From: Shinella sp.
GTDB taxonomy: Bacteria; Pseudomonadota; Alphaproteobacteria; Rhizobiales; Rhizobiaceae
Length of the DNA stretch: 64,000 nucleotides
Reading direction: 5' to 3'
NCBI RefSeq assembly: GCF_035998705.1
Contig: NZ_DASYHH010000021.1
Location: 141,036 to 205,035 of the forward strand
The translations under genes and the position numbers were made by a program. Shown here piece by piece: positions 46,382-64,000 of this stretch (position 1 is the first letter of the stretch; each line of letters opens with the position of its first letter). Below the pieces are notes generated by a model. The model did no database searches, was not told where the DNA came from, and worked only from the letters and a program-made list of their open reading frames with translations.

Positions 46382-47590
46382 TCAGGCGCCGGCCTTACGG
46401 TAGAGCGCGGCAAGCTGGGTGCGCGACGAGGGCAATTCCGGCACCACGACCATCATGGTGATATGCCCGCGCTTGAAGGCGTTGAGGAACGGCTCGTAGT
46501 TCTGGAAGGCGACGCAGCCGTGCGAGCCCTTCTGGTTGCGCAGGAGGTTGGTATGCGTCAAGAGGCCCGTGCGGTTCTTCGGGTCACGCCCGTCGATCGA
46601 GGTCATGCGGATCGCCTCTACGCCGTGGAAGCGCCGCTCGCGCATCTTCAGGCGGTAGATGCCGGCCGGCGTCGGCCCGTTCATCTTGACATGCTCGTAG
46701 CGCGGATTGTCGCGCATCTTGCCGATGCCGGAATGGGCGCGAAGCTTCGTGCCGTCGGGCATGTAGACCGTTGCGTTGGAGACGTCGTAGATCGCGACCC
46801 GCGTGCCCTTGCCGAGCCAGCCCGTGCCATTGCTGCTGCCGCCCTTGCCCTTGAACAGGTCGCCGAACAGCGAGCGCTCGGGCTTGGCGTAGGCGATCTC
46901 TTCCTTGTCCTTGTCCTTGTCCTTCGCCGTTTCGCGCTTGTTGCGCGCGACCGGCTTTTCTTCCACCACCGGCTTTTCGATGGCGACCGTCTCGAGCGCG
47001 GGCTTGGCTTCCGGCAGCGGGATCTGGCTGAGGATGTTGTCCTCTTCCGTCTGCGGCTTCTGCATGACGAGGCCGAAGGGCTGGATGTCCTTGCGCGCAG
47101 ACGTGTCTTCGACGAGCGCGGTCACCATGGCCGGCTGGCCGGTGATCGCCTTTTCCTGTTCGACGGAGCGCTCGGCGCGGGCATAGGCCGCCTCGATCAA
47201 CGCCGCCTTCGCCTTTTCACGCTTCACGGCGGAGGCGAGCTGGACCGAGATCTTGCGCTGGTGCGCCACCTGGATCGCCTCGGCGGTCAGCTGCTTCTGG
47301 CGAAGCTCGCTTTCCGAGGGCTGCGAGAGCCGCGAGAATTTCGCGATCTTCACCACCCGGTCGGCGGCCTTTTCTTTTGCCGCGGTCTTGATGTGGAGCG
47401 TGCCGGCAATGGCCTTCTTGCCGTCGGAAAGCGACGTTGCCGCCTCGTGCATGGCGCCGAGCGTCGAGACGACGGCCCAGGCGGACCCGGCGATGACGCC
47501 GCAGGCAAGCAATGTGCTGAGAAGGATGCCCGCGGAACGGCCCCGACGGGATTTCGACGCGGAACGCGCGGAACTGTACACAGACGCCAT
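46382..47590 (-). CDS. Membrane-anchored DUF2778 (Tlde1, L,D-transpeptidase-like fold) protein
   Basis: N-terminal TM; long charged linker; AHSGIG, GPTPAGIY, HTNLLRNQKGSHGCV. Confidence 0.82.
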   Translation of the reverse strand: MASVYSSARSASKSRRGRSAGILLSTLLACGVIAGSAWAVVSTLGAMHEAATSLSDGKKAIAGTLHIKTAAKEKAADRVVKIAKFSRLSQPSESELRQKQLTAEAIQVAHQRKISVQLASAVKREKAKAALIEAAYARAERSVEQEKAITGQPAMVTALVEDTSARKDIQPFGLVMQKPQTEEDNILSQIPLPEAKPALETVAIEKPVVEEKPVARNKRETAKDKDKDKEEIAYAKPERSLFGDLFKGKGGSSNGTGWLGKGTRVAIYDVSNATVYMPDGTKLRAHSGIGKMRDNPRYEHVKMNGPTPAGIYRLKMRERRFHGVEAIRMTSIDGRDPKNRTGLLTHTNLLRNQKGSHGCVAFQNYEPFLNAFKRGHITMMVVVPELPSSRTQLAALYRKAGA

Positions 47591-47843
47591 GATACTCGTT
47601 ACCCGATACTCGTTACTCGACGCGGCCGCGGAACAGACAGTCCGAGGGCCTTTACGCTGGCGGCGGGCATCGGGACCACGCGTCCCGGAACTCTGCCGAA
47701 CGAGCAAAGAATGACGAAATATGGTAAGCAATTCCTTTACGGCGCCTCACGTTTTTGAAGGAATCCGCCGGGGTGTCCTCACCGCCCGGCAAGGCTGCCT
47801 CTCACGAGAATGCGGCGATGGCGTGTCCTTACCGTCCGTATCG

Positions 47844-49289
47844 CTAGAACCGGGGAGGCCGGGCGAGCCAGTCGGTGGCCTTTTCATAGGCCGCGGCGGC
47901 CGCCAGCACGTCGCGATCGGCCCGCGCGCGGCCGATGATCTGGATGCCCGCAGGCAGGCCGTTTGCCCCGAAACCGGCCGGCATGGCGGCGACGGGAAGG
48001 CCGGCGAGCGTCGGGCCGATGACCACCTCCATCCAGCGGTGATAGGTGTCCATCGCCCGCCCGTCGATCGCTTTCGGCCAGTCCAGCTCGGCATCGAACG
48101 GAAAAACCTGGGCCGAGGGCAGGACGAGGAAATCGTAGGTTTCGAAGAGGCCCGAGACGTAGCGATGCCAGTCGCTGCGGCCGAGCGACGCCGCATAGAC
48201 CTCGGTCGCCGAAAGCCCGCGGCCGTTCTCGATCTCCCAGATCATCTCCGGCTTCATGTTCGCGCGCCGCGCCGGATCATCGTAGTCGGCAGCCTGCCCG
48301 CCGGCGACGAGGAAATGGCGCAGCGTGCGCCAGGTCTGCCACAGCCGCGCCATGTCGAAGCCCGGCGCGACCTCTTCCACCGTGCAGCCGAGCCGGCGAA
48401 AGACGTCGAGCGTCCCGCGGCAAAGCTCCAGCACGCCCGGCTCGAACGGCAGGTAACCGCCGAAATCGCCGAGCCAGCCTATCCGGGCGCCGGAGAGATC
48501 GCGGCTCCCGTCCAGCGAGAGGTCCTCGTCGACCAGCGACAGCGGATCGCGCGGATCGTGCCCCGCCTGCGTCGCGAGAAGGGCCGCGACATCGGCGACG
48601 CTGCGCCCCATCGGCCCGTTGACGGCGAGCTGGCCGAGGAAAAGCTCGTTGCCGAGCGAGGGCACGCGGCCGAAGGACGGGCGGAAGCCGACGACATTGT
48701 TGAAACCGGCGGGATTGCGCAGCGAGCCCATCATGTCGCTGCCGTCGGCCACCGGCAGCATCCGCGCCGCAAGCGCCGCCGCCGCACCGCCGGAAGAACC
48801 GCCAGCGCTCTTGCCCGTATCGTAAGGGTTGCGCGTGACACCGAAGACCGGATTGTAGCTGTGCGAGCCGAGGCCCATTTCCGGCGCGTTGGTCTTGCCG
48901 ATCACGATGGCCCCGGCCGCCCGGATGCGCTCGACATGGATGTCGTCATAGTCCGGCACGAAATCCGCGTAGTTCTTTGAGCCGAAGGAGCAGAGGATGC
49001 CCTTCGCCTCGGACAGATCCTTCACCGCGAAGGGCAGGCCATGCAGCCAGCCGCGATACTCTCCCGCCGCGAGCGCCCGGTCGGCCTCGTCCGCCTCGGC
49101 CAGCAGCTCTTCCGTCGGGCGGAGGCTGACGATGGCGTTGATGCGCGGATTGATCGCCGCGATGCGGGAAAGGTAGGCCGCCATGACGCTTCGGCAGTCG
49201 AGCCTGCGCTCGGCGATGGCGGCGGAAAGGGCAAGGGCGGAAAGGTCGGTAATGTCCTGCAAGGTCGGCTCCGGCGGTCTCTGATGCAA
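47844..49289 (-). CDS. Amidase signature family enzyme
   Basis: GLPFAVKDL, GKTN, GGSSGG, GSDMMGSLRNPA (Ser-cisSer-Lys triad). Confidence 0.94.
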   Translation of the reverse strand: MHQRPPEPTLQDITDLSALALSAAIAERRLDCRSVMAAYLSRIAAINPRINAIVSLRPTEELLAEADEADRALAAGEYRGWLHGLPFAVKDLSEAKGILCSFGSKNYADFVPDYDDIHVERIRAAGAIVIGKTNAPEMGLGSHSYNPVFGVTRNPYDTGKSAGGSSGGAAAALAARMLPVADGSDMMGSLRNPAGFNNVVGFRPSFGRVPSLGNELFLGQLAVNGPMGRSVADVAALLATQAGHDPRDPLSLVDEDLSLDGSRDLSGARIGWLGDFGGYLPFEPGVLELCRGTLDVFRRLGCTVEEVAPGFDMARLWQTWRTLRHFLVAGGQAADYDDPARRANMKPEMIWEIENGRGLSATEVYAASLGRSDWHRYVSGLFETYDFLVLPSAQVFPFDAELDWPKAIDGRAMDTYHRWMEVVIGPTLAGLPVAAMPAGFGANGLPAGIQIIGRARADRDVLAAAAAYEKATDWLARPPRF

Positions 49290-51368: not shown

Positions 51369-52466
51369 TCAAGCGCGTTTGCGGGCGCGGCGCTGTTCCA
51401 GCACGTCCGCGGCTTCCAGCAGCGTATCGAAGATGTAGGAAATCTTCTCGCCCCGCGTCTCGCCATACCAGATCTGCGGCACCATCACCCGAAAGCGGGT
51501 CTCCAGAAGATCGGCAAGCGCCTCGGTATCCCCCATCCATTCGAGCATGTCGGCGTAAAGGTTCATCACGCTCGGTGCCGGGAAGCGGGCAAGCAGGTCT
51601 TCGAAGCCCTGCTTGACGAGGGCCGGATCGCAGAGCGTATCGGCAAGCTCGTGATCGCCGACATCGGTGTTCGCCTGCTGGATCAGCGCATAGAAGCCGA
51701 GGCCGAAGCACTCCCGGGTCAGCTCCACCGCCCGCCGGGCGAAGTTTTCGAGGTCCTGCGCGTCGCGGCCGAGCCAGCGCGGCATGATCATGCGGGCATG
51801 CGCCCGGCAGAGATCGACATTGTAGCGGTCGAGCAGCCAGGCCCGCTCGAAACGCGCCTTGAAGATGTCGAAACTGCCCTCGTTCGCCGCGCGGCGGTAG
51901 TCGCTCATCCGCCAGCTGAAATTCTCCGGGTCCGGATGGCTGTCGAGCACCTCGTCCGCTTCCTTCAAAAGCTCCTCGTAGCTCTTCCACTGCTCCGGCC
52001 GCACGAAGCGTCCATAGGCGGTGCCGCGCCGCGCGAAGGCGGTTACGCGCAGTGCATCGGCATAGGTGGCGGCGGAAAACGGCGACGGGCTGCGCTGGAA
52101 GAACGCCCGGAACGGCTTGAGCATCTCCTCATGCGCCGGCGCCTCCTCGTCCGGCAGCTCCAGGAAGGGTTCGAAGAACCAGTCCTTCACCAGGGAATAA
52201 TGCGGCCGGCCGCTTTGAGCGATCACGCCGCCGGCCCGTGCGGCCTCGAAGGCGCGCTGGTAGGCCTCGAAATCGCCGTTGCCCCAGGCGATCCGCATGG
52301 CGTCGCGCTGCGGAACGAGGTCCGGGAGCTCGTCATAGAGGTCGACGAGATAGAGATCGTAGTCGCGGACCAGCAGCTCCTGCGGCGAAAGCGGCTCCGC
52401 CGGCGCGCGCTCCGCCCGGCCGAACATCCTGTTGCGAAGCGTGCTGAAAATATCCTTGAAGCCCAT
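51369..52466 (-). CDS. Hypothetical protein, DUF4034-like
   Basis: AFARRGTAY..QW and MPRWLG segments resemble DUF4034 proteins; recognition by eye only. Confidence 0.55.
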   Translation of the reverse strand: MGFKDIFSTLRNRMFGRAERAPAEPLSPQELLVRDYDLYLVDLYDELPDLVPQRDAMRIAWGNGDFEAYQRAFEAARAGGVIAQSGRPHYSLVKDWFFEPFLELPDEEAPAHEEMLKPFRAFFQRSPSPFSAATYADALRVTAFARRGTAYGRFVRPEQWKSYEELLKEADEVLDSHPDPENFSWRMSDYRRAANEGSFDIFKARFERAWLLDRYNVDLCRAHARMIMPRWLGRDAQDLENFARRAVELTRECFGLGFYALIQQANTDVGDHELADTLCDPALVKQGFEDLLARFPAPSVMNLYADMLEWMGDTEALADLLETRFRVMVPQIWYGETRGEKISYIFDTLLEAADVLEQRRARKRA

Positions 52467-52644: not shown

Positions 52645-53445
52645 GTGATGGCCATGCTGACAGTGCTTGCCTTGCTGATGAGCCTGACGGCCGGCGCCGA
52701 AATCGCCGCCGCCTCCGACCAGGAGGTCGACGTGGAGCTGGTGCTTGCGGTCGACGTCTCCGGCTCGATGGACCTGGAGGAAGCGCAGGTGCAGCGCGCC
52801 GGCTATGTCGATGCGCTCAGACATCCCGATTTCGTCAATGCCGTGCGCGACGGCCTGACCGGCCGCATCGCCATCAGCTATTTCGAATGGGCCGGCACGA
52901 TCCGCGACAGTTCCCACCTGCCCTGGCAGATCATCTCCGGGCCGGAAGACGCCAACGCCTTTGCAGCCCAACTGGAGGCCCGCCCGATCGCCACGCGCCG
53001 CGGCACGTCGATCTCCGGCGCCATCGTCTACGGCGCGAAACTCTTCGATGGAAACGGCTATTCCGGCATGCGCCGCGTCATCGATGTCTCCGGCGACGGC
53101 CCGAACAATTTCGGACCGCCCGTGACGCCGGCCCGCGATGCCGCCACCGCGCTCGGCATTATCATCAACGGCCTCGCCATCATGATCCGCCCCTCGGCCG
53201 CCTACGGCTCGCTCGACGACTATTATTCGAACTGCGTCATCGGCGGCCCGGGCGCCTTCGTGCTGCCGGTGCAGGAGCCGGAGGATTTCGCCATCGCCAT
53301 CCGCCGCAAGCTGATCCTCGAAGTCAGCGGCGCCGAGCCGCCCGCCCGCGTGATCCGCGCCGCCGGCCAGAGCGCCGACTGCATGATCGGCGAGAAACTC
53401 AGGCCCAGCTACATGGAACGCTACTACCCGGAACTCGACCGGTAA
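52645..53445 (+). CDS. DUF1194 (vWA-like) secreted protein
   Basis: Signal peptide; LVLAVDVSGS, RRVIDVSGDGPNN, CVIGGPGAF. Confidence 0.9.
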   Translation: MMAMLTVLALLMSLTAGAEIAAASDQEVDVELVLAVDVSGSMDLEEAQVQRAGYVDALRHPDFVNAVRDGLTGRIAISYFEWAGTIRDSSHLPWQIISGPEDANAFAAQLEARPIATRRGTSISGAIVYGAKLFDGNGYSGMRRVIDVSGDGPNNFGPPVTPARDAATALGIIINGLAIMIRPSAAYGSLDDYYSNCVIGGPGAFVLPVQEPEDFAIAIRRKLILEVSGAEPPARVIRAAGQSADCMIGEKLRPSYMERYYPELDR

Positions 53446-53597: not shown

Positions 53598-53611
53598 TGA
53601 ATGAACGTTCA
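53598..53611. promoter_or_regulatory. BetI-like operator site 1 (TGAATGAACGTTCA)
   Basis: Palindromic; 20 bp upstream of the Rieske start; matches sites at 56423 and 62265. Confidence 0.75.
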
Positions 53612-53630
53612 GCAAAATAAGGGGAGCGAC

Positions 53631-54830
53631 ATGAACGAGATGATCCGCGATATCAACGTTCCGAACGACTGGGACAGGAGCGGACTTCCGGGCTGGTGTT
53701 ATCACAGCCCCGCCCTTCTCGAGCTGGAGAAGCAGCATGTTTTCCGCGAGCACTGGCAGATCGCCTGCCACGTCTCCGACATTCCCGAGCCCGGCAACTA
53801 CCTTGCCATGGACGTCGTCGGCGAGCGCGCGCTCATCCTGCGCGGGCAGGACGGCACCGTGCGCGCCTTCCACAATATCTGCCGCCACCGCGGCTCGCGC
53901 CTCGTCGCCGACGAGACGGGCACGTGCCGCAACGCGCTTGTCTGTCCCTTCCACGGCTGGGTCTACAATCTCGACGGCACCTTGCGCGGCGCCGCGCGCC
54001 CCCGCAGTTTCCCGCCGCTCGACAAGGACGAGTTCGCGCTGAAATCGCTCGAATGCGAGATCTGGATGGGTTTCGTCTTCATCCGCTTCGCGCCCGGCCC
54101 GCAGCCCTCCGTCGCCGAGCTGATGAAGCCCTTCGAGGACGAACTTTCGCATTACCGTTCCGAGGAGATGGTGCCCACCGGCGGTATCTGGACGCAGGAA
54201 AGTCCGGTCAACTGGAAGTCCGTGCGCGACGTCGACAACGAGGGCTACCATGTCGCCATGGCCCACCCGGCCCTTCAGGACCTCTATGGCTCGACCTATT
54301 ACGACGAGCCCTTCGTCGACGGCCTCTGCCGGTCCTTCGCCACCTACAATCCCCATGCCGGCCGGCGCTGGAGCGTGCGCAACTACGTCAGGATATCGCA
54401 GGACAACCCGCGGCTTCCCGAACGGCTGCGCAAGGCCTGGATCTATTTCGGCCTGTTCCCGAACTGCGTCATCGCGGTGACGCCGGAGACCATGCAGTTC
54501 TACCAGGAATTCCCCATCGGCGTCGGCAGGACGTTGCTGCGCGGCGGCATCTACCGCTACCGCGACGAGGACCGCGCCCAGCGCCTCGCCCGCTACCTCG
54601 CCTACCGCATCGATCGCGACACGCAGTCCGAGGACGTGCAGCTCACCGTCTGGTCGAACGAGGCGATGACCTCGAACGCCTTTGCCGGCTTCTACCTCTC
54701 CGACCTCGAATATGGCGTGCGCACCCACCACGACCACATTCGCAAGGTGCTGCCGGTGGTGACGCTGAAGGAGGCGCCGGAAGAGACGGCGATGGCGGAG
54801 GTCAATGCCGGCCTCGCCGAAAGCCGCTAA
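53631..54830 (+). CDS. Rieske non-heme iron oxygenase alpha subunit (choline monooxygenase/GbcA/CntA-like group)
   Basis: CRHRG..CPFHGW Rieske ligands; EGYHVAMAH and a C-terminal ED for mononuclear Fe; AAGGGGAG RBS before 53631. Confidence 0.92.
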   Translation: MNEMIRDINVPNDWDRSGLPGWCYHSPALLELEKQHVFREHWQIACHVSDIPEPGNYLAMDVVGERALILRGQDGTVRAFHNICRHRGSRLVADETGTCRNALVCPFHGWVYNLDGTLRGAARPRSFPPLDKDEFALKSLECEIWMGFVFIRFAPGPQPSVAELMKPFEDELSHYRSEEMVPTGGIWTQESPVNWKSVRDVDNEGYHVAMAHPALQDLYGSTYYDEPFVDGLCRSFATYNPHAGRRWSVRNYVRISQDNPRLPERLRKAWIYFGLFPNCVIAVTPETMQFYQEFPIGVGRTLLRGGIYRYRDEDRAQRLARYLAYRIDRDTQSEDVQLTVWSNEAMTSNAFAGFYLSDLEYGVRTHHDHIRKVLPVVTLKEAPEETAMAEVNAGLAESR

Positions 54831-54842
54831 ACCACCGACATG

Positions 54843-54870
54843 AAAAAGAGGCCCGCTTTCGCGGGCCTCA
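54843..54870. terminator. Terminator between convergent Rieske and aminotransferase genes
   Basis: AAAAA-GAGGCCCGC-TTTC-GCGGGCCTC. Confidence 0.8.
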
Positions 54871-54921
54871 AACGTTTGGACCGGGGAATGTCGGTCCAAA
54901 CAGGGTCTTGTCCGGAAGGGC

Positions 54922-56358
54922 TCAGCCCTTCCAGAGCCCTTCGCGGGTCAGGTCGTCCATGGTGAGTTCGATGCCGCGGCGCAGGATCGAAGCCATGTCG
55001 TCGATCTGCGCTGTCGAGATGGTGAGCGGCGGCGACATCACGCACATGCTGATGAGCGGGCGCACCAGAAGGCCGAGTTCCTGGCAATGCCGGTCGATGC
55101 GTTTTCCCACTTCGAGATCGAGCGTCAGCGGATTGTTGCTGACCCGGTCGGCGACGCATTCGACGCAGGCCATGAGGCCGAGACCGCGCACTTCGCCGAC
55201 CAGCGGCAGGTCTTCCAGCGCCTTCAGGCTCTTCTGGAAATGATCCGACACCGCCCGTGCATGCGCCAAAAGGCCGCCTTCCAGGATGTCGAGGTTCTTC
55301 AGCGCCACGGCGCAGCCGACCGGATGGCTGGAATAGGTGAGCCCGTGCGCAAACATCGCCTCCGAATGGTTCGAACGGCGCAACTCCTCGAACAGCCGGC
55401 CTGCGATCATCACGCCGCCGAGCGGGAAATAACCGGAGGTGACGCCCTTGGCGAAGGTGATCATGTCCGGCTCGATATCGAAAACATCCTTCGACGCGAA
55501 GACATGGCCGAGGCGCCCGAAGGCCGTCACTACCTCGTCGGCGATGAAGAGGATGTCGTTGGCCCGGCAAAGCGCGTGCATGCGCTTGAGGTATCCCGCG
55601 GGCGGCACGATGACGCCGCCAGAGGCCATGACGGGCTCGGCAATGAAGGCGCCGATAGTTTCGGCCCCCTTCTCTTCTATGACCTGCCGGAATTCCTCAA
55701 CGAGGAAGTCGCAGAACGCCTCTTCCGTAATGCCTTCCGGCCGGCGGAACGGGTCCGGGCAGGAGAGTTTGACGACGAGATCCGACGCGCTGTCCATCCA
55801 GTCGTGGTCGCGCGGCCGGCCGTTGAGCGAGGCGGAGAGATAGGTCGAACCGTGATAGCCGCCCTGCCGGGAGACGATCAGCTTCTTCTCCGGCCGCCCC
55901 TTCACATTGTTGGCGAACTGCATGAAGCGCAGCGCCGTCTCCACCGCCGAGGAACCGCCCGTCGTGTAGAAAACGTGGTCGACGCCGTCGGGCGCGTGCT
56001 CGGCGAGTCGGGCAGAGAGCACAGCAGAGGGTGTGTTCGTCGTGTACCAGGGCGAATTGTAGGATAGCTCCATGGCCTGCGACGCCATGACGTCGGCCAA
56101 TTCCTTGTTGCGGTGCCCGGCATTGACGCACCACATGCCGGCAGGCCCGTCGATCAGCTTTCTGCCGCTGGCATCCGTCACATAGATGCCCTCGCCCGAC
56201 TCGATTCGCCCGCGTGCCTCGGCACCGATCGAGCCCGACATCGGCCAAGGCTGCACCAGGTGGCGCTCGGCAAGGCGGGTGATCTCGTCGCCCGCCGCCT
56301 CGCCAGCACGCAGGTCCTCGTTCGCCGTCTTCGGAATTGCCGCCATGTCCCGCTCCAT
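54922..56358 (-). CDS. Class III (omega-amine) PLP aminotransferase
   Basis: GMWCVNAGH, GGSSAVETA, YHGST, IADEVVTAFGR, TFAKGVTSGYFPLG. Confidence 0.93.
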   Translation of the reverse strand: MERDMAAIPKTANEDLRAGEAAGDEITRLAERHLVQPWPMSGSIGAEARGRIESGEGIYVTDASGRKLIDGPAGMWCVNAGHRNKELADVMASQAMELSYNSPWYTTNTPSAVLSARLAEHAPDGVDHVFYTTGGSSAVETALRFMQFANNVKGRPEKKLIVSRQGGYHGSTYLSASLNGRPRDHDWMDSASDLVVKLSCPDPFRRPEGITEEAFCDFLVEEFRQVIEEKGAETIGAFIAEPVMASGGVIVPPAGYLKRMHALCRANDILFIADEVVTAFGRLGHVFASKDVFDIEPDMITFAKGVTSGYFPLGGVMIAGRLFEELRRSNHSEAMFAHGLTYSSHPVGCAVALKNLDILEGGLLAHARAVSDHFQKSLKALEDLPLVGEVRGLGLMACVECVADRVSNNPLTLDLEVGKRIDRHCQELGLLVRPLISMCVMSPPLTISTAQIDDMASILRRGIELTMDDLTREGLWKG

Positions 56359-56422
56359 CGATTATTTACCAAGAGGATATCGCATACAACAATATGAAAG
56401 AGTTTAGGTTTCCCAATCATAT

Positions 56423-56436
56423 TGAATGTTCGTTCA
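56423..56436. promoter_or_regulatory. BetI-like operator site 2 (TGAATGTTCGTTCA, flanked by AT..ATCAAT)
   Basis: In the divergent aminotransferase/ABC promoter region. Confidence 0.78.
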
Positions 56437-56604
56437 ATCAATATTGCAGAACTGGGGCTTGATTTCAACGGGGATTTGAGCGCATGTTGTCTTCAGGGAA
56501 CACGAGAGTGCCGGATACGGAAACTCCTCAAGCCGAAAAGGCGCACATATGGGAATGGGAAGCCTCACGCTCTATGAATGTTGCCGCGAGCGGAGCCCTG
56601 CCCG

Positions 56605-57522
56605 ATGACGGCGGCGGCGTTCGACAGGATCGCTGACACGCCCGCCCCGGCAAGGCGCCGGGCCTGGACACGCAGCGAAGAGGCCCGCGGCCTCGCCATG
56701 ATCTCGCCGACCTTCCTCTATGCGCTGGCGCTGCTTTTCTTGCCCGTCCTCATCGTCATCGCCTACAGTTTCTGGACCCAGAACTATCTCGACATCGACC
56801 GCACCTTCACGCTGGAAAACTACCGCCAGGCGCTGACCGAACCGATCTACCGCGACCTCTTCATCCGCTCGCTGTGGATCTCGCTGACGGTCAGCGTCGT
56901 CACCGTCGTCTTCTCTTACCCCATCGCCTGGTTCATCTCCTTCCATGGCGGGGTGCACAAAAACCTCTGGCTCTTCCTGATCACCGTACCCTGCTGGACG
57001 AGCTATCTGCTGCGCGTCATGTCCTGGAAGGTCATCCTCGGCTATGGCGGCGTCATGAACACCGGCCTTATCTCGATGGGCCTCATCGACAAGCCGGTGA
57101 CCTCGCTGCTCTACAATTCCAACGCCGTCGTCATCACGCTGGTGCACAGCTGGGCCGCCTTCGCCATCTTGCCGATCTACGTCTCGCTGCAGAAGATCGA
57201 CCGCACCTATATCGAGGCGGCACGCGATCTCGGCGACAGTCGGCTCCGCGCCTTCTTCCGCATCACCCTGCCGCTGTCGCTGCCGGGCGTCGTCTCCGCC
57301 TTCCTGATCGTGATGATACCGACCGTCGGCGACTACGTGACGCCGCGCCTCGTCGGCGGCAAGGACGGCGTGATGATCGCGACCGCCATCCAGGCGCAGT
57401 TCGGCAAGGGCGCGAACTGGCCGCTGGGTGCCGCCCTCTCCGTAACGACCATGATCCTCGTGTCGCTGACGGCCGCAGCCGTCGTGCTGGCGCTGAAATT
57501 CACCGTGCGGAGGATCAAATGA
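56605..57522 (+). CDS. ABC transporter permease (PotB-like)
   Basis: TM helices; EAARDLG EAA loop; NWPLGAALS. Confidence 0.92.
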   Translation: MTAAAFDRIADTPAPARRRAWTRSEEARGLAMISPTFLYALALLFLPVLIVIAYSFWTQNYLDIDRTFTLENYRQALTEPIYRDLFIRSLWISLTVSVVTVVFSYPIAWFISFHGGVHKNLWLFLITVPCWTSYLLRVMSWKVILGYGGVMNTGLISMGLIDKPVTSLLYNSNAVVITLVHSWAAFAILPIYVSLQKIDRTYIEAARDLGDSRLRAFFRITLPLSLPGVVSAFLIVMIPTVGDYVTPRLVGGKDGVMIATAIQAQFGKGANWPLGAALSVTTMILVSLTAAAVVLALKFTVRRIK

Positions 57523-58343
57523 CAATCCTCACGCAACGCTTGCGTTTCATTCCGTGGCTGCCGGTCTATGTCGCGGTCTATTTCCTCTTCCTCTACCTGC
57601 CGATCCTGCTGCTGCCGGTCTTCTCCTTCAACAATGCGGCGACGACGACCTTCCCGCTCGCCGGCTTCACCACCAAATGGTACGCCTCGCTCGCCGGCAA
57701 TTCGGTGATGATGGAAGCGGCCTGGAACAGTCTGGTCGTCGGCATCTCGGTCGCGCTGCTCTCGACGGTGCTCGGCATCTGCGCGGCCCGCGCCATCACG
57801 CGATACCGCTTTCGCGGCCAGAGGGCGGCGGCCGGCCTCATCATGGCGCCGCTCTTCCTGCCGGAAATCATCGTCGCGGTCTCGCTCCTGATGATCGTGC
57901 TCGCGATGGGCATCGAGCTTTCGCTCGTCACCATCATCCTCGGCCAGACCGTGTTCTGCGTGCCCTATGCCATGTCGGTGCTCGTCTCCGGCTTCGAGGG
58001 CTTCGACCGCAGCCTGGAAGAAGCCTCCTACGATCTCGGCGAAACCGCCATCGGCACCTTCCGGCGCGTCACGCTGCCGGTGGTCGCACCGGCCATCGTC
58101 TCCAGCCTGCTCGTTACCTTCACCATCTCGCTCGACGAGTTCATCCTCGCCTTCTTCCTGTCCGGCACCGCGCCGACGCTGCCGGTCTATATCTGGGGCC
58201 AGCTGCGTTTCGCCGCCAAGCTGCCCGGCGTGCTGGCGCTCGGCACGATCATGCTCGTCGCCTCGATCCTCATGCTCACCCTTGCCGAAGTCCTGCGCCG
58301 CCGTGCCGAACGCCGCACGCAATTGGCGCTCATCCTGCCCTAG
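57519..58343 (+). CDS. ABC transporter permease (PotC-like)
   Basis: FLYLPILLL..FSFN, GFTTKWY, EEASYDLG, FTISLDEF. Confidence 0.92.
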   Translation: MTILTQRLRFIPWLPVYVAVYFLFLYLPILLLPVFSFNNAATTTFPLAGFTTKWYASLAGNSVMMEAAWNSLVVGISVALLSTVLGICAARAITRYRFRGQRAAAGLIMAPLFLPEIIVAVSLLMIVLAMGIELSLVTIILGQTVFCVPYAMSVLVSGFEGFDRSLEEASYDLGETAIGTFRRVTLPVVAPAIVSSLLVTFTISLDEFILAFFLSGTAPTLPVYIWGQLRFAAKLPGVLALGTIMLVASILMLTLAEVLRRRAERRTQLALILP

Positions 58344-58353
58344 GAGGCGCGCA

Positions 58354-59463
58354 ATGCCCGACCGTCCCATGATCGAGATCCAGAACGTCTCGAAGTTCTA
58401 CGGCATCTACAAGGCGCTCGACGACGTCTCGCTGACCATCGGCGAAGGTGAGTTCTTCTCGCTGCTCGGCCCCTCCGGCTGCGGCAAGACCACGCTGCTG
58501 CGCTCGATTGCCGGCTTCGAGACGCCGACGGCCGGCGAAATCTTCATCGACGGCGCGCCGTCGCTCGCCCTGCCGCCAAACAAGCGGCCGACCAACATGG
58601 TGTTCCAGAACTACGCCATCTTCCCGCATCTCGACGTCGCCGAAAACGTCGCCTACGGCCTGAAGCGGCTGAAACTCTCGCCGGAAGACGAGAAAAAACG
58701 TGTCGGCGACGCGCTCGACCAGGTCCGCCTCTCGGGCTTCGGCCAACGCAAGGCGCACGAATTGTCCGGCGGCCAGCGCCAGCGCGTGGCGCTCGCCCGC
58801 GCCCTCGTCATGCGTCCGAAAGTATTGCTGCTCGACGAGCCGCTCTCAGCCCTCGACAAGAAGCTGCGCGAGGAAATGCAGGTGGAGCTGCGCACGCTGC
58901 AAAAGGCCGTCGGCATCACCTTCATCCTCGTCACGCACGACCAGTACGAGGCGCTGGCGCTCTCCGACCGCATCGCCGTGATGTTCGGCGGCCGCATCGC
59001 CCAGATCGCGACACCGAAGGAAATCTACCAGCGCCCGCGCACGCGAAAAGTCGCCGATTTCCTCGGCGGCATGAACTTTTTGAAGGCGAAGGTGCTCGGC
59101 GAACAGGGCAATGCCGTCTCGGTTGACGCCGCCCGCTTCGGCGCGGTCAACCTCGACAAGCCGCACGGTTTTAGCGCCACAAACGGCCACGTCACCGTCG
59201 GCATCCGCCCGGAACGCCTGCGCCTCCTGTGGGACGACGACCGCGCCCAGCACGAACTCGCCGGCCGCATTCAGAACCGCGCCTATTTCGGCGAAGTCAC
59301 CCATCTCACCGTCGGCGTCGACGGGCTGGAGCAGCCGCTCTCCATGGTCGAGACCAACGATCACGGCGCAGACGACCTGCCGATCGGTGCAGAAATCCGC
59401 CTCGCCTATGATCCAGATGCGTTCGTGCTTTTGGCAGAAGACGAAGCGGTGCGACGGGTTTGA
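58354..59463 (+). CDS. ABC transporter ATP-binding protein (PotA-like)
   Basis: GPSGCGKT, VFQNYAIFPH, LSGGQRQR, LLDEPLSALD, TOBE-like tail. Confidence 0.95.
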   Translation: MPDRPMIEIQNVSKFYGIYKALDDVSLTIGEGEFFSLLGPSGCGKTTLLRSIAGFETPTAGEIFIDGAPSLALPPNKRPTNMVFQNYAIFPHLDVAENVAYGLKRLKLSPEDEKKRVGDALDQVRLSGFGQRKAHELSGGQRQRVALARALVMRPKVLLLDEPLSALDKKLREEMQVELRTLQKAVGITFILVTHDQYEALALSDRIAVMFGGRIAQIATPKEIYQRPRTRKVADFLGGMNFLKAKVLGEQGNAVSVDAARFGAVNLDKPHGFSATNGHVTVGIRPERLRLLWDDDRAQHELAGRIQNRAYFGEVTHLTVGVDGLEQPLSMVETNDHGADDLPIGAEIRLAYDPDAFVLLAEDEAVRRV

Positions 59464-59523
59464 GCGATAGCGAATAGAAGGTAGCGCCTAGAAACTATTC
59501 GCTACTCCCTATTCGCTATTCGC
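59464..59523. repeat. Inverted arrays of the heptamer CTATTCG
   Basis: Right arm CTATTCG-CTACTCC-CTATTCG-CTATTCG (59495-59522); left arm GCGATAG-CGAATAG-AAGGTAG (59464-59484) on the opposite strand. Confidence 0.7.
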
Positions 59524-59531
59524 CCCTCTTC

Positions 59532-60614
59532 TCAATACCCCGATTTGATCTTCTCGAATTCGGCGATCATCTTCTGGCGCAGCTCCGTCGGGATCGGCGC
59601 CTGGAAGAGCGTGTTGGCGACGAAGGAGTCGACATCCGCATAGCCCTTGTCGGCAAGGATCTTCGGATCGACCGCGGCCATGCCCTTGGCGTTGGAATGG
59701 CCGTAACCCCAGTTCTCCACCATATAGGCGGCTACGGCCGGATCGGTGACGGCGTTGAGGTAGTCATAGGCGAGATCGGGGCTGCCTTCGCCGTCCTTCA
59801 GCCGTGAATAGCCGCAGACCCAGGTCGAAAGCCCTTCCTTCGTATCCTTCTTGATCACCACCGGCTGGCCCTCGGCTTGCAGCGTCGTCGCCGTCTCGTT
59901 CCACGCCCAGGCAAGATCGACCTCGCCGCTGGCCATCGCCTGGCTGAGATCCGTATTGTCCGTCCAATAGAGCCGTACGTTCTGGTGCACCGCGCGCAGG
60001 AAGGCCGACGCCTCCTGGAATTGCGCATCCGTCATCGCCGTCAGGTCCTTGAGGCCGATGGCGAGGCCCGCCAGCGCATAGGCGTCGTCGACATTGTCGC
60101 CGATCGACACGCGGTCCTTGAATTTCGGATCAGCAAAGGCCTTCAGCGAGGCGACTTCCTCGGGCTTCACTGTATCCGTACGGTAGGTCAGCACCGTATT
60201 GCCCCATTCGAAGGGAAGGAACCAGGCCGTGCCGTCCTCGGCCGTCATGAGGTTTTTCATGCCCTTGAAGGCCGGCAATATGTCGTTCCATGCCGTGAGT
60301 TTCGACGTGTCGAGAGGCTCCAGCAGCCCGGCCTCGCGCCATTTCACGATACTCTGCGCGCAAGGATGCGCGATATCGGCCTTGAAGCCGGAACGCAGCT
60401 TCTGGAAGGCCTCTTCCTCATCGCCGAAGAACGAGAAATCCGGCGAACCACCATGTTTTTCCACATAGGCGGGGTGGAAGGCCGGGTCCTCGTAGCCGGA
60501 CCAGTCGAAAACAGTGAGCGTATCGGCGGCGACGGCGGGAAGCGCAGTTGTAAGGGCGAGGAGAGCGGCCAATGCCGCCATTGTGGTGCGCTTGGCCCTG
60601 TTTGCAGTCTTCAT
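59532..60614 (-). CDS. Extracellular solute-binding protein (PotD/PotF-like)
   Basis: Signal peptide; LTVFDWSGY, PFEWGNT, MASGEVDLAWAW, GLSTWVCG. Confidence 0.9.
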   Translation of the reverse strand: MKTANRAKRTTMAALAALLALTTALPAVAADTLTVFDWSGYEDPAFHPAYVEKHGGSPDFSFFGDEEEAFQKLRSGFKADIAHPCAQSIVKWREAGLLEPLDTSKLTAWNDILPAFKGMKNLMTAEDGTAWFLPFEWGNTVLTYRTDTVKPEEVASLKAFADPKFKDRVSIGDNVDDAYALAGLAIGLKDLTAMTDAQFQEASAFLRAVHQNVRLYWTDNTDLSQAMASGEVDLAWAWNETATTLQAEGQPVVIKKDTKEGLSTWVCGYSRLKDGEGSPDLAYDYLNAVTDPAVAAYMVENWGYGHSNAKGMAAVDPKILADKGYADVDSFVANTLFQAPIPTELRQKMIAEFEKIKSGY

Positions 60615-60643
60615 GCCGTACTCCTTCCCCGTTTTCGGGTTCC

Positions 60644-61309
60644 CTATTGTGGTTGTGGTCCTTGAAGCGTGAGATGTTTCGGGAAGGCGATCACGACGAA
60701 GGCGATTGCCGCCTCCAGCGCCTTTTCCCGCGTCGTGCCGTCGCCCATCATCAGGCGCAGCCACAGGCCTTCCAGCATGGCGCAGAGCGCCAGCGCCATC
60801 GGCTCCGGCTCATAGCCATAGCCGCCCTCGGCCCTCAGCTCGGTGCAAAGCGAGATCACCGTTTCCTGGTATTTGACGTCACGCGCGCCGCAGAGCGCCT
60901 GATAGGTCGGCCGCGACTTCGCCTCGCCCCAGAACGCGCACCAGGCGGCAAGCTTGCGCTTGGTGCAGATCTTGCGGTCGAAATCCGCGTGCACGATGGC
61001 CCACAGGCGGCTGGCAACGCTTGGGCCGGCCTTTTCCAGCGCGGCATTCCAATGGTCGCCATACTCTTCCGACATATATTGCAGCGTCGCGATGAGCAGG
61101 TTTTCCTTGCTCTCGAAATGGAAGTTGACGATGCCGCGGGAAAGGCCGGCGCCGTCAGCCACGTCGGCGAGCGTTGTGTCGGAATAACCGCGCTTGGCGA
61201 GCGAATCGATCGTCGCCTCGATGAGCTGCTGCCGCCTCGTTTCCTTGGAAGCCTTGCGTCCCCGCTTCTCGCCGTCGCCCGAGCCCTGTTCAGCCCCGCC
61301 TGCCCGCAT
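60644..61309 (-). CDS. TetR family regulator, BetI-like
   Basis: RRQQLIEATIDSLAKRG, GLSRGIVNFHFESKENLL, WCAFWGEA, LEGLWL. Confidence 0.88.
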   Translation of the reverse strand: MRAGGAEQGSGDGEKRGRKASKETRRQQLIEATIDSLAKRGYSDTTLADVADGAGLSRGIVNFHFESKENLLIATLQYMSEEYGDHWNAALEKAGPSVASRLWAIVHADFDRKICTKRKLAAWCAFWGEAKSRPTYQALCGARDVKYQETVISLCTELRAEGGYGYEPEPMALALCAMLEGLWLRLMMGDGTTREKALEAAIAFVVIAFPKHLTLQGPQPQ

Positions 61310-61350
61310 CTTCACCGTCACCTTGCCTCTGGGATTTCTGAGCACCACGG

Positions 61351-62169
61351 TCACGGGTTCACTCCCGCGGCCGGCTTGCTGCCGCGCAGATGAGTGGGAC
61401 AATGCTCTCCGCTGTCAAGAACCTTCTGCATGGCCGTCCAGGTGCGGATATTCTTCGCGACATGGGCTTCGCCCACGGCCTCCACCGCCGCTGCGTAGAG
61501 CGGCCCCTTCAGGCGTTCAAGCTCACCGCGCGCCACCTCGCGATACCAGGCATTGCGGCTTTCGGCCGTCGCATCGATGAAGCCCGCCGCCGCCATCGCC
61601 GCAAGATAGCGGCGCGGCGAGGCCATGCCGAAATGCAGCCCCTCGGCGGCAATATAGTCGGTCATGTCCACGCTCGGCTCACCGTCATGGCCGATCAGCC
61701 AGTCGGAGGCGGCAAACCTGCCGCCGGGTTTCAGCACGCGGAAAAGCTCGGCGAAGAGGGCCTCCTTGTCCGGCACGTGGATCATCGCATCCTTGGAAAA
61801 GACGATGTCGAACTCTCCGTCGTCGAACGGCAGGCGGCCGGGTGGGCTAGACACGAACCGCGCGACGGCGGAGAGCGCTGCGGCATCAGCCGCCGCCCTC
61901 GCCCGCTTGATGACCGGCTGCTCCACGTCGTAGCCGACGATCTGCGCCGGCCCGTAGGTCTTTGCCAGATGCAAGGTGATGCCGCCGGCGCCGCAACCGA
62001 AATCGAGAACGCGTTTGCCCTTGAGGTCGACACCCGCAATCACGCGATCGACTTCCTCTGGTCCACCGGGAGACAGGTATCCTTCTCCCCAAAGGACGCC
62101 GAGGAAGCGGATCGCCGCCTCGTCATATTCCGGCGCCCCTGCCGCATCGCCTTCAACCACTGCCGTCAT
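61351..62169 (-). CDS. Class I SAM-dependent methyltransferase, phosphoethanolamine N-methyltransferase-like
   Basis: [45 protein letters not shown]. Confidence 0.82.
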
Positions 62170-62264
62170 GGCATTCCCTTGTCGTGGTCCCTGATACCGG
62201 CTGACCGGCGCTCGTCCATGGGTCGAAATTCTAGCGCATAATCAGGCGATTGCAAGATACTTGC

Positions 62265-62278
62265 TGAATGATCATTCA
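62265..62278. promoter_or_regulatory. BetI-like operator site 3 (TGAATGATCATTCA; perfect 16-bp palindrome 62264-62279)
   Basis: In the divergent methyltransferase/flavoprotein promoter region. Confidence 0.78.
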
Positions 62279-62337
62279 GAATAACTGGACAAGGTTTTGC
62301 TTTTGATGCAGCTTTTAGAAACAAGGGAGACATCAAA

Positions 62338-63957
62338 ATGCAAAAGTACGATGCCCTGATCGTTGGCGGCGGCCATAATGGGCTGGTCACGGCCTGCTAT
62401 TTGCAGCGCTCCGGCCTCAACGTTCTCGTCGTGGAAAAGAATGGGTGGGTCGGCGGCGCGGCGACAAGCCGGGAGCTCACCCCCGGCTTCCTCTATTCCA
62501 ACTGCTCCTACGTCTGCTCCCTCTTCCGCCCGGAGATCATGCGCGACCTCGAACTGCCGAAACACGGCCTCCAGGTCATCGCCTACGAGGGCGGCGCGGT
62601 CTTCACGCGCGACGGCGACTACCTCGCCTCCTACCGCGACCACGACAGCCATCGCCGTGAATTCGCCCGCTACTCCAGGCGCGACGCCGAGGCCTATGAG
62701 CGCTACGCCCGCGACGTCACCCGCCAGTGCCGCTTCATCCAGCCGCTTCTGATGCGCACCGCACCCGACCCGTTCAGTTTTCGCCCGCGCGACATTTCCG
62801 AGCTGCTCTATCTCGCCAAAAAATTCGGGGAGTTCAGCCCGCACGAAATGGCCGAGACGCTGCGCTTCTGGACCATGTCGATCTCCGACTATCTCGACGA
62901 ATATTTCGAAACCGACGTCATCAAGGCCTATCTGGCGCTGTCCGGCATCATCGGCACCGCGCTCGGCCCCATGTCGCCGGGCACGGCCTATGTGCTGCTC
63001 CATCACTATATGGGCGAAGTCGACGGCTCGGTCGGCGCCTGGGGTTATGCCCGCGGCGGCATGGGCGCGGTGACGCAGGCGCTCGCCCGTTCCTTCGAAT
63101 CGGTCGGCGGCACCATCCGCACCGATGCCGAGGTCTCCAAGATCTTGACCCGTGGCGGGCGCACGACCGGCGTCGTGCTCGCCAACGGCGACGAGGTGCG
63201 CGCCGATCTCGTCGTCTCCAATGCCGACGTGAACCGCACCTTCCTGAAGCTCGTCGACGAGGAATCGCTTCCGGGCGACTTCGTCCACCGGGTAAAACAC
63301 TTCAAGATGCGCGGCTCGTCGGGCAAGGTGAACATCGCGCTCGACAGCCTGCCGGAATTCCCGGCGCTGCCGGAAGGCTCCTCCTGCATGCGCGGCGACA
63401 TGCATTTCACCGATTCCATCGAGCGCATGGAACGCGCCTATGACGACTGGAAGGATGGCCGCTGGTCGGCCGATCCCTTCCTCGACATGGTCATCCCGAC
63501 GACGCTCGACCCGACCATGGCCTCGCCCGGCAAACATTTCATGAGCTGTTTCGTGCAATATTGCCCGCCGAAGGTGGAGGGCCGCGACTGGACGGATGCC
63601 GACCGCGACGCTTTCGCCGAAACCGTCATCAGCCAGATCGCCAGCTATTCGCCGGGTTTTCGCGAGCGCATCGTCCATATGGAGGTGCGCACGCCGCGCG
63701 AAATCGAGAACGAGGTGGGCCTCACGGAAGGCAACATCTTTCAAGGTGAACTCACCTTCGACCAGCTTCTCTTCAACCGGCCGGTGCCGGGTTACGCCCA
63801 GTACCGCAGCCCCATCGCCGGCCTCTACATGTGCGGCTCCTCCACCCATCCGGGCGGCGGGGTGATGGGCGCGCCCGGGCGCAACGCCGCCGCCGAAATC
63901 CTGCGCGACCTGAAGCGTACCCCCGAACAGATGAGCAAAGCCCATGACGTCATTTGA
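62338..63957 (+). CDS. Phytoene dehydrogenase-like (PYROXD2-type) FAD oxidoreductase
   Basis: IVGGGHNG, YARGGMG, GNIFQG, YMCGSSTHPGGGVMGAPGRNAA. Confidence 0.9.
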   Translation: MQKYDALIVGGGHNGLVTACYLQRSGLNVLVVEKNGWVGGAATSRELTPGFLYSNCSYVCSLFRPEIMRDLELPKHGLQVIAYEGGAVFTRDGDYLASYRDHDSHRREFARYSRRDAEAYERYARDVTRQCRFIQPLLMRTAPDPFSFRPRDISELLYLAKKFGEFSPHEMAETLRFWTMSISDYLDEYFETDVIKAYLALSGIIGTALGPMSPGTAYVLLHHYMGEVDGSVGAWGYARGGMGAVTQALARSFESVGGTIRTDAEVSKILTRGGRTTGVVLANGDEVRADLVVSNADVNRTFLKLVDEESLPGDFVHRVKHFKMRGSSGKVNIALDSLPEFPALPEGSSCMRGDMHFTDSIERMERAYDDWKDGRWSADPFLDMVIPTTLDPTMASPGKHFMSCFVQYCPPKVEGRDWTDADRDAFAETVISQIASYSPGFRERIVHMEVRTPREIENEVGLTEGNIFQGELTFDQLLFNRPVPGYAQYRSPIAGLYMCGSSTHPGGGVMGAPGRNAAAEILRDLKRTPEQMSKAHDVI

Positions 63958-64000
63958 TGCGATCGTTATCGGCGCCGGCCACAACGGGCTCGCCGCCGCC
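63944..64000 (+). CDS. Second phytoene dehydrogenase-like flavoprotein (partial, runs off window)
   Basis: MTSFDAIVIGAGHNGLAAA, overlapping the previous stop by 14 bp. Confidence 0.8.
   Translation, partial: MTSFDAIVIGAGHNGLAAA

Follow-up and report, generated by a model that had tools for sequence, protein, structure and literature searches.

What would a bacterium do with a gene cluster that places a Rieske oxygenase, an omega-aminotransferase, a polyamine-type ATP-binding cassette (ABC) importer, a methyltransferase, a pair of flavoproteins and a BetI-like repressor side by side? The question is raised by one end (positions 53598–64000) of a 64 000-nucleotide stretch of DNA from Shinella sp. 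(hereafter the window), which an earlier note had singled out as a candidate pathway island for methylated amines. The window is part of a 235 kb metagenome contig from the Joint Genome Institute (JGI); the closest public DNA is an algae metagenome, and the window proteins are 81–98% identical to those of Shinella species (Rhizobiaceae). The answer that we favour, and regard as moderately probable, is that the island is a single regulon through which a cationic N-methylated amine is taken up, stripped oxidatively of all its N-methyl groups and finally deprived of the primary amino group so exposed. The substrate probably bears a trimethylammonium group.

Because many spurious open reading frames (ORFs) overlap the real ones in DNA of 65% GC content, frames were picked by the GC content at third codon positions (GC3) and the products were then scanned against Pfam and NCBIfam. 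The island genes have GC3 values of 0.76–0.90, in agreement with the Pfam and NCBIfam matches, and this bears out the nine complete genes and partial tenth counted by the earlier note. Its division of the island into five transcription units also stands (the Rieske gene; the aminotransferase gene; two permeases and an ATPase; the methyltransferase, the regulator and a binding protein; and the flavoprotein operon), and its family assignments all hold at the level of the family, as judged by Pfam, NCBIfam and matches to solved structures. The ABC genes are split: the two permeases and the ATPase are encoded on the plus strand, and the gene for the binding protein follows those of the methyltransferase and the regulator on the minus strand. 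The end of the window cuts the island, which continues for about 3 kb on the source contig with the rest of flavoprotein 2 (518 residues), a GcvT-like protein (410 residues) and an ORF of 85 residues.

What ties these units together is a shared operator. The palindrome TGAATGWWCRTTCA, which resembles a BetI box, has three matches in the window, all of them in the island, against an expectation of 0.04, and none of 100 shuffles reached this count. A repeat finder returned a single family (D11/I17) with copies at 53594, 56419 and 62261. Operator O1 (TGAATGAACGTTCA, 53598–53611) lies about 20 nt 5' of the probable start codon of the Rieske gene, O2 (TGAATGTTCGTTCA, 56423–56436) lies in the divergent intergenic region between the aminotransferase and permease genes, and O3 (62265–62278) lies in the divergent region between the methyltransferase and flavoprotein genes, where it forms part of a perfect 16 bp palindrome (CTGAATGATCATTCAG, 62264–62279). 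O2 is found just downstream of a promoter-like site for the aminotransferase gene (56468 to 56440, minus strand) and O3 adjoins another such site on the minus strand (62255 to 62228), which would serve the methyltransferase operon. The Rieske ORF opens at 53601, and its start is probably the ATG at 53631, which has a ribosome-binding site (AAGGGAG) 5 nt upstream and gives an N-terminus that is conserved in Shinella curvata; O1 would therefore lie in the leader, outside the coding sequence. Placed in front of the Rieske gene and in each of the two divergent intergenic regions, three sites can control all five units. The motif occurs at the same three positions in Shinella, Mycoplana, Ensifer, Pararhizobium, Mesorhizobium, Hoeflea and Salaquimonas. 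With three sites, none elsewhere in the 64 kb and their positions kept in other Rhizobiales genera, the linkage of the units through one operator, as first suggested, is confirmed. The motif was not found in four checked loci of the Rhodobacterales/Hyphomicrobiales type. The motif-less Fuscovulum and Palleronia clusters yielded no detectable repressor homologue; Ruegeria marina and a metagenome-assembled genome (MAG) of Hyphomicrobiales, likewise motif-less, have a distant one (37–47% identity).

The likely reader of these sites is encoded within the island (60644–61354, minus strand; alternative start at ATG 61309). This regulator combines a TetR_N domain (PF00440) with a BetI-type C-terminal domain, TetR_C_6 (PF13977), and is 33% identical to Escherichia coli BetI. 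O1, which reads ATATTGAATGAACGTTCA, matches the E. coli betI–betT box (TTATTGATTGGACGTTCAATATAA) at 15 of 18 bases; by comparison with E. coli TTATTGATTGGACGTTCA it is an operator of the betI–betT type. The scores of the regulator lie under the NCBIfam equivalog cut-offs for BetI (121.6 versus 201.3 for TIGR03384 and 115.8 versus 118 for NF001978), and neither betA nor betB is found in the island. For these two reasons the protein is judged to be a paralogue of BetI and not BetI itself.

The arrangement is not peculiar to this contig. A genome scan seeded with the methyltransferase gave 76 loci, of which 46 keep most or all of twelve genes in synteny; these come from Shinella, Mycoplana, Ensifer, Pararhizobium, Rhizobium, Ciceribacter, Mesorhizobium, Hoeflea, Nitratireductor and Salaquimonas. 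A Rieske-seeded alignment contained 340 relatives in species-level genomes, and co-occurrence was counted in the best 80 of these 340 loci with 10 kb flanks: the aminotransferase was present in 68, the ATPase in 67, the regulator in 57, flavoprotein 1 in 52 and the methyltransferase in 47. Orthologues thus do co-occur in other genomes, in many genera of two orders, as both scans attest. Synteny of the set extends to more than 80 Rhizobiales genomes, and its cultured carriers include Shinella lacus, S. granuli and Ensifer adhaerens. On a plasmid of Fuscovulum ytuae (Rhodobacterales) the same families form one co-directional operon in a wholly different order: aminotransferase, two flavoproteins, GcvT-like protein, two Rieske proteins, binding protein, ATPase, two permeases, a DddL-family cupin, an amidohydrolase and the methyltransferase. 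Identities to the window proteins are 68% for flavoprotein 1, 45% for flavoprotein 2, 56% for the GcvT-like protein and 58% for both the Rieske protein and the methyltransferase. Variant clusters also occur in Palleronia, a Rhodobacter MAG and a Hyphomicrobiales MAG. Because the linkage has outlasted such reshuffling between orders, it provides good evidence for a joint function of the genes.

What chemistry they perform is addressed most directly by the flavoprotein operon. Flavoprotein 1 (62338–63957, plus strand; Pfam Amino_oxidase, DAO and NAD_binding_8) is the most conserved protein of the island, with 83–97% identity across Rhizobiales genera and the 68% to Fuscovulum given above. Flavoprotein 2, whose first 19 codons (63944–64000, plus strand) precede the point where the gene leaves the window, is its paralogue (33% identity over the full length). 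Both align end to end with CrtI, and the best solved relative of flavoprotein 1, matched over its full length, is the CrtI structure 4DGK. Names given to homologues of flavoprotein 1 are generic in all sources, and UniRef names several orthologues after PYROXD2. One could take the resemblance to CrtI at face value, the pair being phytoene or carotenoid desaturases in a chance mixture of unrelated genes; the best NCBIfam hits are in fact CrtO (311 bits) and the crtI family TIGR02734 (140.8 bits). These scores are, however, far under the cut-offs of 1000 and 238.1, no crt genes lie nearby, the operator is common to the other units, and linkage to the GcvT-like, Rieske and ABC genes survives rearrangement across orders. 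A chance neighbourhood of this kind is hardly conceivable, and the identification of the flavoproteins as carotenoid desaturases is in practice refuted.

The genes that follow point towards methyl groups. The two flavoprotein genes overlap by 14 nt, flavoprotein 2 and the GcvT-like gene overlap by 4 nt, and the small ORF lies 2 nt past the GcvT stop codon. The GcvT-like protein carries PF01571 and PF08669, and its best match is the C-terminal folate domain of trimethylamine N-oxide (TMAO) demethylase (173 bits to 9Q5A and 244 bits to the NCBIfam model), followed by true T-proteins, the alpha subunit of sarcosine oxidase and dimethylglycine dehydrogenase/oxidase. This similarity is the strongest single indication of an oxidative removal of N-methyl groups with transfer of the one-carbon unit to tetrahydrofolate. 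Lying as it does beyond the window, the gene adds to the case for the N-methylated-amine interpretation of the earlier note, which is therefore strengthened. The partners of the GcvT-like protein are CrtI/PYROXD2-type flavoproteins, with no partner of the DAO or DUF1989 type. The 85-residue ORF (window-equivalent 66731–66988; L001 14394–14651) is conserved (42–90% identity) 3' of the GcvT-like gene in the checkable Rhizobiales loci. Its product has its homologue in the N-terminal stretch, about 60 residues long, of the 283–295-residue cupins of the DddL family (dimethylsulfoniopropionate (DMSP) lyase; PF16867) that are found in the Rhodobacterales versions. By this homology, the Rhizobiales seem to have kept only the N-terminal domain of a DddL-family cupin as a separate protein, with the cupin part gone, and the protein is a candidate small subunit.

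We advance a more specific proposal, which we hold tentatively as plausible but short of probable: the flavoprotein pair, the free GcvT-like protein and the small protein would constitute a new folate-linked demethylase for N-methyl amines, non-homologous to both the DAO type (sarcosine oxidase, DMGDH) and the old yellow enzyme (OYE) type (DgcA, TMADH), and would act downstream of a new Asp-type subclade of Rieske oxygenases. Human PYROXD2 is an orphan mitochondrial flavoprotein whose function is not known (PMC8777681), and its locus is a replicated quantitative trait locus (QTL) for N6-methyl- and N6,N6-dimethyl-lysine (PMC9730628). Also in favour of amine demethylation, some loci of the Pararhizobium type carry an extra flavin amine oxidase resembling monoamine oxidase (MAO; 425–433 residues) after the binding-protein gene (L018 12604–13905; L020 12609–13886), and one of them adds a SnoaL-like protein (L020 13931–14320).

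The Rieske protein (53631–54830, plus strand; Pfam Rieske and Ring_hydroxyl_A) has CntA (119 bits) and Stc2 as its best solved relatives. Its cluster motif (CRHRG...CPFHGW, CXH/CXXH) and its mononuclear iron motif (YHVAMAH, HX4H) align to both enzymes. Group V Rieske oxygenases, which act on quaternary amines, are defined by a bridging Glu in place of the canonical aspartate and are split by the residue at CntA position 203, which is Tyr or Phe in CntA, the choline monooxygenases and OxyBAC (Va) and Asn in the demethylases GbcA, BmoA and Stc2 (Vb) (PMC7948474). The bridging Glu is present in the island protein (the Glu of NEGYH, aligned to CntA E205), whereas an Asp aligns to CntA Tyr203 and the Asn of Stc2, so that it carries the signature residue of neither subgroup; this Asp is invariant in the orthologues from the window, Shinella curvata and Fuscovulum. 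Because the bridging Glu is kept and position 203 is Asp, the protein is best described, on its sequence, as group-V-like with a third type of signature. The GbcA model gives 134 bits against a cut-off of 670, with only the N-terminal half aligned.

An enzyme acting as CntA does would hydroxylate the carbon next to the trimethylammonium group to give trimethylamine and an aldehyde; the flavoproteins and the GcvT-like protein would then demethylate tri-, di- and methylamine, and the aminotransferase would act on a second amino group of the skeleton. The standing of CntA as best solved relative and the closeness of the GcvT-like protein to the TMAO demethylase folate domain are both compatible with such a cleavage, yet the window enzyme has Asp where the CntA clade has the Tyr/Phe of its cation–pi contact, and no genes for Tmm, Tdm or the gamma-glutamylmethylamide route are nearby. 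A second Rieske oxygenase of the Rhodobacterales versions, with the motif NWKTFWENYSECLH, does have Tyr at the position corresponding to CntA 203 (Va type, by inspection against the CntA alignment) and lends this route some further support. On balance we consider it unlikely for the island as a whole. The second enzyme, present in Rhodobacterales and Hyphomicrobiales versions (Fuscovulum plasmid, L078 5144–6280; also L096 and L103), is 30% identical to that of the window, and the same versions carry an Amidohydro_3 hydrolase; the two together suggest a longer or branched pathway there.

The importer and the aminotransferase bear on the nature of the substrate. All parts of the importer are of the Pot type: a PotB-like permease (56605–57522, plus strand; BPD_transp_1; start as on the source contig), a PotC-like permease (57519–58343, plus strand; assigned by Pfam and NCBIfam) whose gene overlaps the previous one by 4 nt, a PotA-like ATPase with a TOBE domain (58354–59463, plus strand; ABC_tran and TOBE_2) and a distant PotD/PotF-like periplasmic binding protein (59532–60614, minus strand; SBP_bac_8). 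The scores fall under the NCBIfam equivalog cut-offs (203 versus 348 for PotB, 192 versus 326 for PotC and 82 versus 582 for PotD), and the ATPase reaches 354.8 against a potA subfamily cut-off of 355.6. In the alignment of the binding protein with E. coli PotD (22% identity), all five aromatic ligand residues are kept (W34, Y37, W229, W255 and Y293) and acidic and polar ligand positions are changed (E36G, D168N, D257C, Y85Q and E171D), the ligand roles being those established for PotD. This pattern appears to suit an alkylated or quaternary ammonium group better than a polyamine with several protonated nitrogens. The class III aminotransferase (54922–56358, minus strand) matches Aminotran_3 (PF00202) with 272 bits and passes the cut-off of NF005447 (686.5 versus 618 bits), a family without an assigned substrate. 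Its closest structures are 3I5T, plant gamma-aminobutyric acid (GABA) transaminase and the putrescine/polyamine:pyruvate transaminases of the SpuC type, and by sequence it groups with the pyruvate-dependent amine, GABA and polyamine transaminases.

The methyltransferase (61351–62169, minus strand), which depends on S-adenosylmethionine (SAM), is the least easily placed member. Its best solved relatives are the plant phosphoethanolamine methyltransferases (PEAMT; 126 bits to 5WP5), and its family is small: of 1.84 billion representatives only 182 reach E <= 1e-30. The SAM motif (DFGCGAGG) and the catalytic His (PfPMT His132, in DAMIHVPDK) are conserved, the latter in 73 of 93 aligned sequences (the query and 92 full-length bacterial representatives). 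The plant motif YIKQRGY is replaced by YIAAEGL, so that by motif spacing PfPMT Arg179 becomes Glu and Tyr181 becomes Leu; both are phosphate ligands in PfPMT (PMC6705855). AEGL is nearly invariant among the orthologues, and across the 93 sequences most residues in the Arg179 column are Glu, Ala, Asp or Ser, and Arg is outside the eight commonest. The column of PfPMT Tyr19, a member of the Tyr–His dyad, holds Leu with an adjoining Phe, in a region where the N-terminal alignment is short. The PEAMT-like label of the earlier note therefore survives for the fold and fails for a phosphobase function: since the phosphate-ligand residues are replaced, the enzyme is judged not to be a methyltransferase for phosphoethanolamine or another phosphobase. 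A Glu at the Arg179 site would be compatible with a substrate whose second group is cationic or neutral polar. A pathway for 2-aminoethylphosphonate (AEP) or trimethyl-AEP, considered since the ATPase resembles PhnT2, was rejected: there is no gene for phosphonatase, PhnW or PhnY/A, and the phosphate ligands of the methyltransferase are lost. In 10 of the 52 loci with both the regulator and flavoprotein 1 the methyltransferase is missing and those two genes are directly divergent, with gaps of 185–430 nt. Its absence from these otherwise intact loci marks it as an accessory gene. Shinella daejeonensis and Aquamicrobium soli are examples of strains that naturally lack it.

Distant homologues of the methyltransferase have neighbours of their own. 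In gammaproteobacteria they form an operon with a decarboxylase of the Orn/DAP/Arg type and an MTHFR-like gene; others adjoin a TMADH-like flavoenzyme and an agmatinase-family gene, or a glutamine-synthetase-like gene; and a homologue in an Anaerolineae MAG lies with a DAO-family oxidase, a CoA-acylating malonate/methylmalonate-semialdehyde dehydrogenase, an aminotransferase and a Pot-type importer (L098 7901–10765; L099; L100 7818–11748; L089 7912–10765; L117 1141–10759). These operons may represent further methylated-amine pathways, and such neighbours connect the methyltransferase family with amine metabolism and, more than once, with N-demethylases whose folds are unrelated. Homologues of 39–40% identity in L048 (Lysobacterales) and L079 (a Mesorhizobium plasmid) showed no related gene context.

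These features allow two further explanations in which the methyltransferase takes the lead. It might exhaustively methylate an imported or endogenous amine to make a compatible solute, in a bet-like regulon that also provides for breakdown of the solute, by the oxygenase, the flavoproteins and the aminotransferase, once the need for it has passed. PEAMT enzymes, whose fold it shares, carry out three successive N-methylations (PMC6705855), the regulator is BetI-like, and the decarboxylase and MTHFR-like partners in gammaproteobacteria would be in keeping with synthesis. Against this, one operator for all units would switch on synthesis and breakdown together, no osmotic-stress element was found and the methyltransferase is absent from 10 of the 52 intact loci, so that a solute regulon seems rather improbable. 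Alternatively, the enzyme might quaternize the secondary amine of spermidine, homospermidine or norspermidine so that the Rieske oxygenase could cleave the C–N bond, with the methyl groups recovered as methylene-tetrahydrofolate by the flavoproteins and the GcvT-like protein and the diamine finished by the aminotransferase. The Pot-type transporter, the SpuC-like aminotransferase and the Glu at the PEAMT phosphate site, which fits a second cationic group, would find a place in this scheme, as would the agmatinase-family, glutamine-synthetase-like, decarboxylase and MTHFR genes and the TMADH-like and DAO-family N-demethylase types beside the homologues; but loci without the methyltransferase keep everything else, SAM would be spent where simple dehydrogenases suffice, and we know of no precedent for methylation-assisted cleavage of a polyamine. 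We think it very improbable.

Returning to the regulon for uptake and complete N-demethylation, we infer the catalytic steps, their order, the complex and the nature of the substrate from the genes, families, operators, synteny and residue patterns that are observed. The BetI-type repressor would occupy the three operators until the methylated amine or a close derivative releases all five units. The Pot-type importer, whose binding protein offers the aromatic cage of PotD with few acidic ligands, would take the amine up. The group V Rieske oxygenase, served by a reductase encoded elsewhere, would remove the first methyl group and convert the quaternary amine to a tertiary one, and the two CrtI/PYROXD2-like flavoproteins would oxidize the N-methyl groups of the tertiary and secondary amines. 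Their translationally coupled partner, the GcvT-like protein, would capture the one-carbon unit on tetrahydrofolate, with the 85-residue protein as a small subunit, and the omega-aminotransferase would turn the primary amine that results into an aldehyde, which would enter central metabolism. The methyltransferase would be an optional extra that probably N-methylates a related non-phosphorylated amine and so feeds or buffers the same pool. The candidates for the substrate are trimethylammonium compounds that would give an omega-amine on demethylation: gamma-butyrobetaine, beta-alanine betaine or delta-valerobetaine, trimethylated diamines, methylated amino alcohols and N6-methyl-lysines. The DddL-family cupin and the malonate-semialdehyde dehydrogenase of the Anaerolineae locus, both in distant variants, give weak hints of a three-carbon skeleton or a DMSP analogue.

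Several points weigh against this scheme. Foremost, and its main unexplained point, a SAM methyltransferase that is co-regulated with demethylases resembles a futile cycle. The Asp signature of the Rieske protein is neither the Asn of the demethylases nor the Tyr/Phe of the C-oxidizing enzymes and the enzyme may therefore either demethylate or cleave the C–N bond. Group V oxygenases have a dedicated reductase gene beside the oxygenase gene (CntB, GbcB, Stc3/4); no gene for a Rieske reductase was found in the island, the 10 kb downstream or the sampled window ORFs, and the Fuscovulum operon likewise has none; nor did the window and the downstream region that were searched contain an aldehyde dehydrogenase gene for the product of transamination. 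The known activities of CrtI-type flavoproteins are desaturation and isomerization, and amine demethylation is not among them. Finally, the ligands of the Rhizobiales and Rhodobacterales binding proteins may differ, because the two versions are only 22% identical.

The remaining features lie in the gaps between island genes or outside the island. A GC-rich terminator hairpin with a T-run (54848–54869, minus strand; a stem of nine pairs, eight of them GC, followed by TTTTTCATGT) separates the convergent Rieske and aminotransferase genes. A weak match to the Bradyrhizobiaceae small RNA BjrC68 (54839–54910, minus strand; 23.6 bits versus a gathering score of 39) overlaps this hairpin and is probably nothing but the terminator. 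In other loci the same convergent gap (54831–54921 in the window) is a hot spot for insertions (L002, L175, L195, L205, L217 and L221). The inserts were rejected as pathway members, being heterogeneous: a PBP5-like carboxypeptidase, an insertion-sequence (IS) transposase, a chemoreceptor, a tetratricopeptide-repeat (TPR) protein and a block of lipase, phosphoesterase, methyltransferase and sulfatase genes. Between the convergent ATPase and binding-protein genes a long hairpin (59464–59523; −31.5 kcal/mol, z = −6.3) contains three copies of CTATTCGCTA and may serve as a terminator or represent a small repeat element. An Rfam scan of the island gave no RNA family at threshold, and the search for sequencing runs returned none classed as RNA.

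The genes 5' of the Rieske gene are housekeeping or miscellaneous and unrelated to the island. Directly 5' of it is a gene for a secreted DUF1194 protein resembling von Willebrand factor A (vWA) domains (52645–53445, plus strand), which has no operator and no evident link, and which often keeps its place beside the island in Shinella, Mycoplana and Pararhizobium. Downstream on the source contig follow a TetR regulator and a resistance–nodulation–division (RND) efflux system, common only to Shinella and Mycoplana (63–99% identity) and not detected at the island loci of other genera in the neighbourhood comparison. Elsewhere in the window, a 449-residue protein (46382–47731, minus strand) has a C-terminal Tlde1 domain, of a family of L,D-transpeptidase-like type VI effectors; its gene is flanked by that of a PAS-domain chemoreceptor upstream (44457–46217) and an amidase gene downstream (47844–49289). 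Two well-supported ORFs of 365 and 389 residues (51369–52466, minus strand, and 8093–9262, plus strand; GC3 0.82–0.84) have no Pfam match.

A full-text search of the literature found no description of the gene set, which upholds the view that it matches no characterized pathway. The combination of genes, the Asp-type Rieske signature, the flavoprotein pair with a free-standing folate protein and the three-operator regulon of a BetI paralogue all appear to be undescribed in the literature searched. In soils, rhizospheres and algal phycospheres, major currencies of carbon, nitrogen and one-carbon units are found among the methylated amines (choline, betaines, carnitine relatives, methylated polyamines and methyl-lysines, for example), which are also the source of climate- and health-relevant methylamines; the island is widespread in Rhizobiales and present in Rhodobacterales, and no described pathway covers it. 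If the demethylase proposal is true, the PYROXD2 family, including a human disease gene linked to methyl-lysine levels, would be N-demethylases, and the bacterial gene context provides a concrete and testable hypothesis for the function of this orphan family. The co-regulated set of transporter, sensor, three operators and enzymes offers a test bed for the substrate, for the third group V signature class and for a first function of a CrtI/PYROXD2-like pair.

Comparison with known systems places each part. With the bet regulon of E. coli and rhizobia (BetI, BetT and BetAB) the island shares a TetR-family repressor with a BetI-type ligand domain and a betI–betT-like operator; it differs in lacking betA and betB, in a repressor under the BetI cut-offs and in governing five units through three sites. 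A four-component Pot-type importer beside a pyruvate-type omega-aminotransferase recalls PotABCD and SpuC, whereas the sub-cut-off Pot scores, the loss of PotD E36, D168 and D257 and the linkage to demethylation genes do not. The methyltransferase has its closest solved structures among the PEAMT/PMT enzymes, including PfPMT, and keeps their SAM motifs and catalytic His, but is without the phosphate ligands Arg179 and Tyr181 and has Leu in the Tyr19 column. CntAB and Stc2, the best solved relatives of the oxygenase, share its Rieske and iron motifs and its bridging Glu (PMC7948474); the island enzyme is set apart by its Asp signature, by the lack of an adjoining reductase gene and by a catalytic C-terminal domain that phmmer leaves unaligned.

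The GcvT-like protein matches the folate-binding domains of Tdm, dimethylglycine oxidase (DMGO)/dehydrogenase and heterotetrameric sarcosine oxidase, and a channelling of formaldehyde or iminium to tetrahydrofolate is predicted for the island as for these enzymes. In the island, however, the folate module is a separate 410-residue protein encoded after two CrtI-type flavoproteins and before the 85-residue ORF. Human PYROXD2 shares its name with orthologues of flavoprotein 1, a likeness of names and not of an alignment, and its methyl-lysine QTL fits the role of an N-demethylase. The closest parallel in design is the glycine betaine catabolism of Pseudomonas, in which GbcAB, DgcAB and SoxBDAG provide one enzyme for each methyl group. 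There too a group V Rieske oxygenase acts first, the second and third methyl groups each fall to a flavoenzyme of their own, and a GcvT-type folate module captures a one-carbon unit. The island flavoproteins are of the CrtI/PYROXD2 type and not DgcA (OYE-like) or SoxB (DAO-type), the GcvT-like protein is free-standing, no gene for a GbcB-type reductase is present, and the end product is predicted to be transaminated and so would not be glycine. Every part is nonetheless of a known kind, and the overall logic resembles that of known betaine catabolism.

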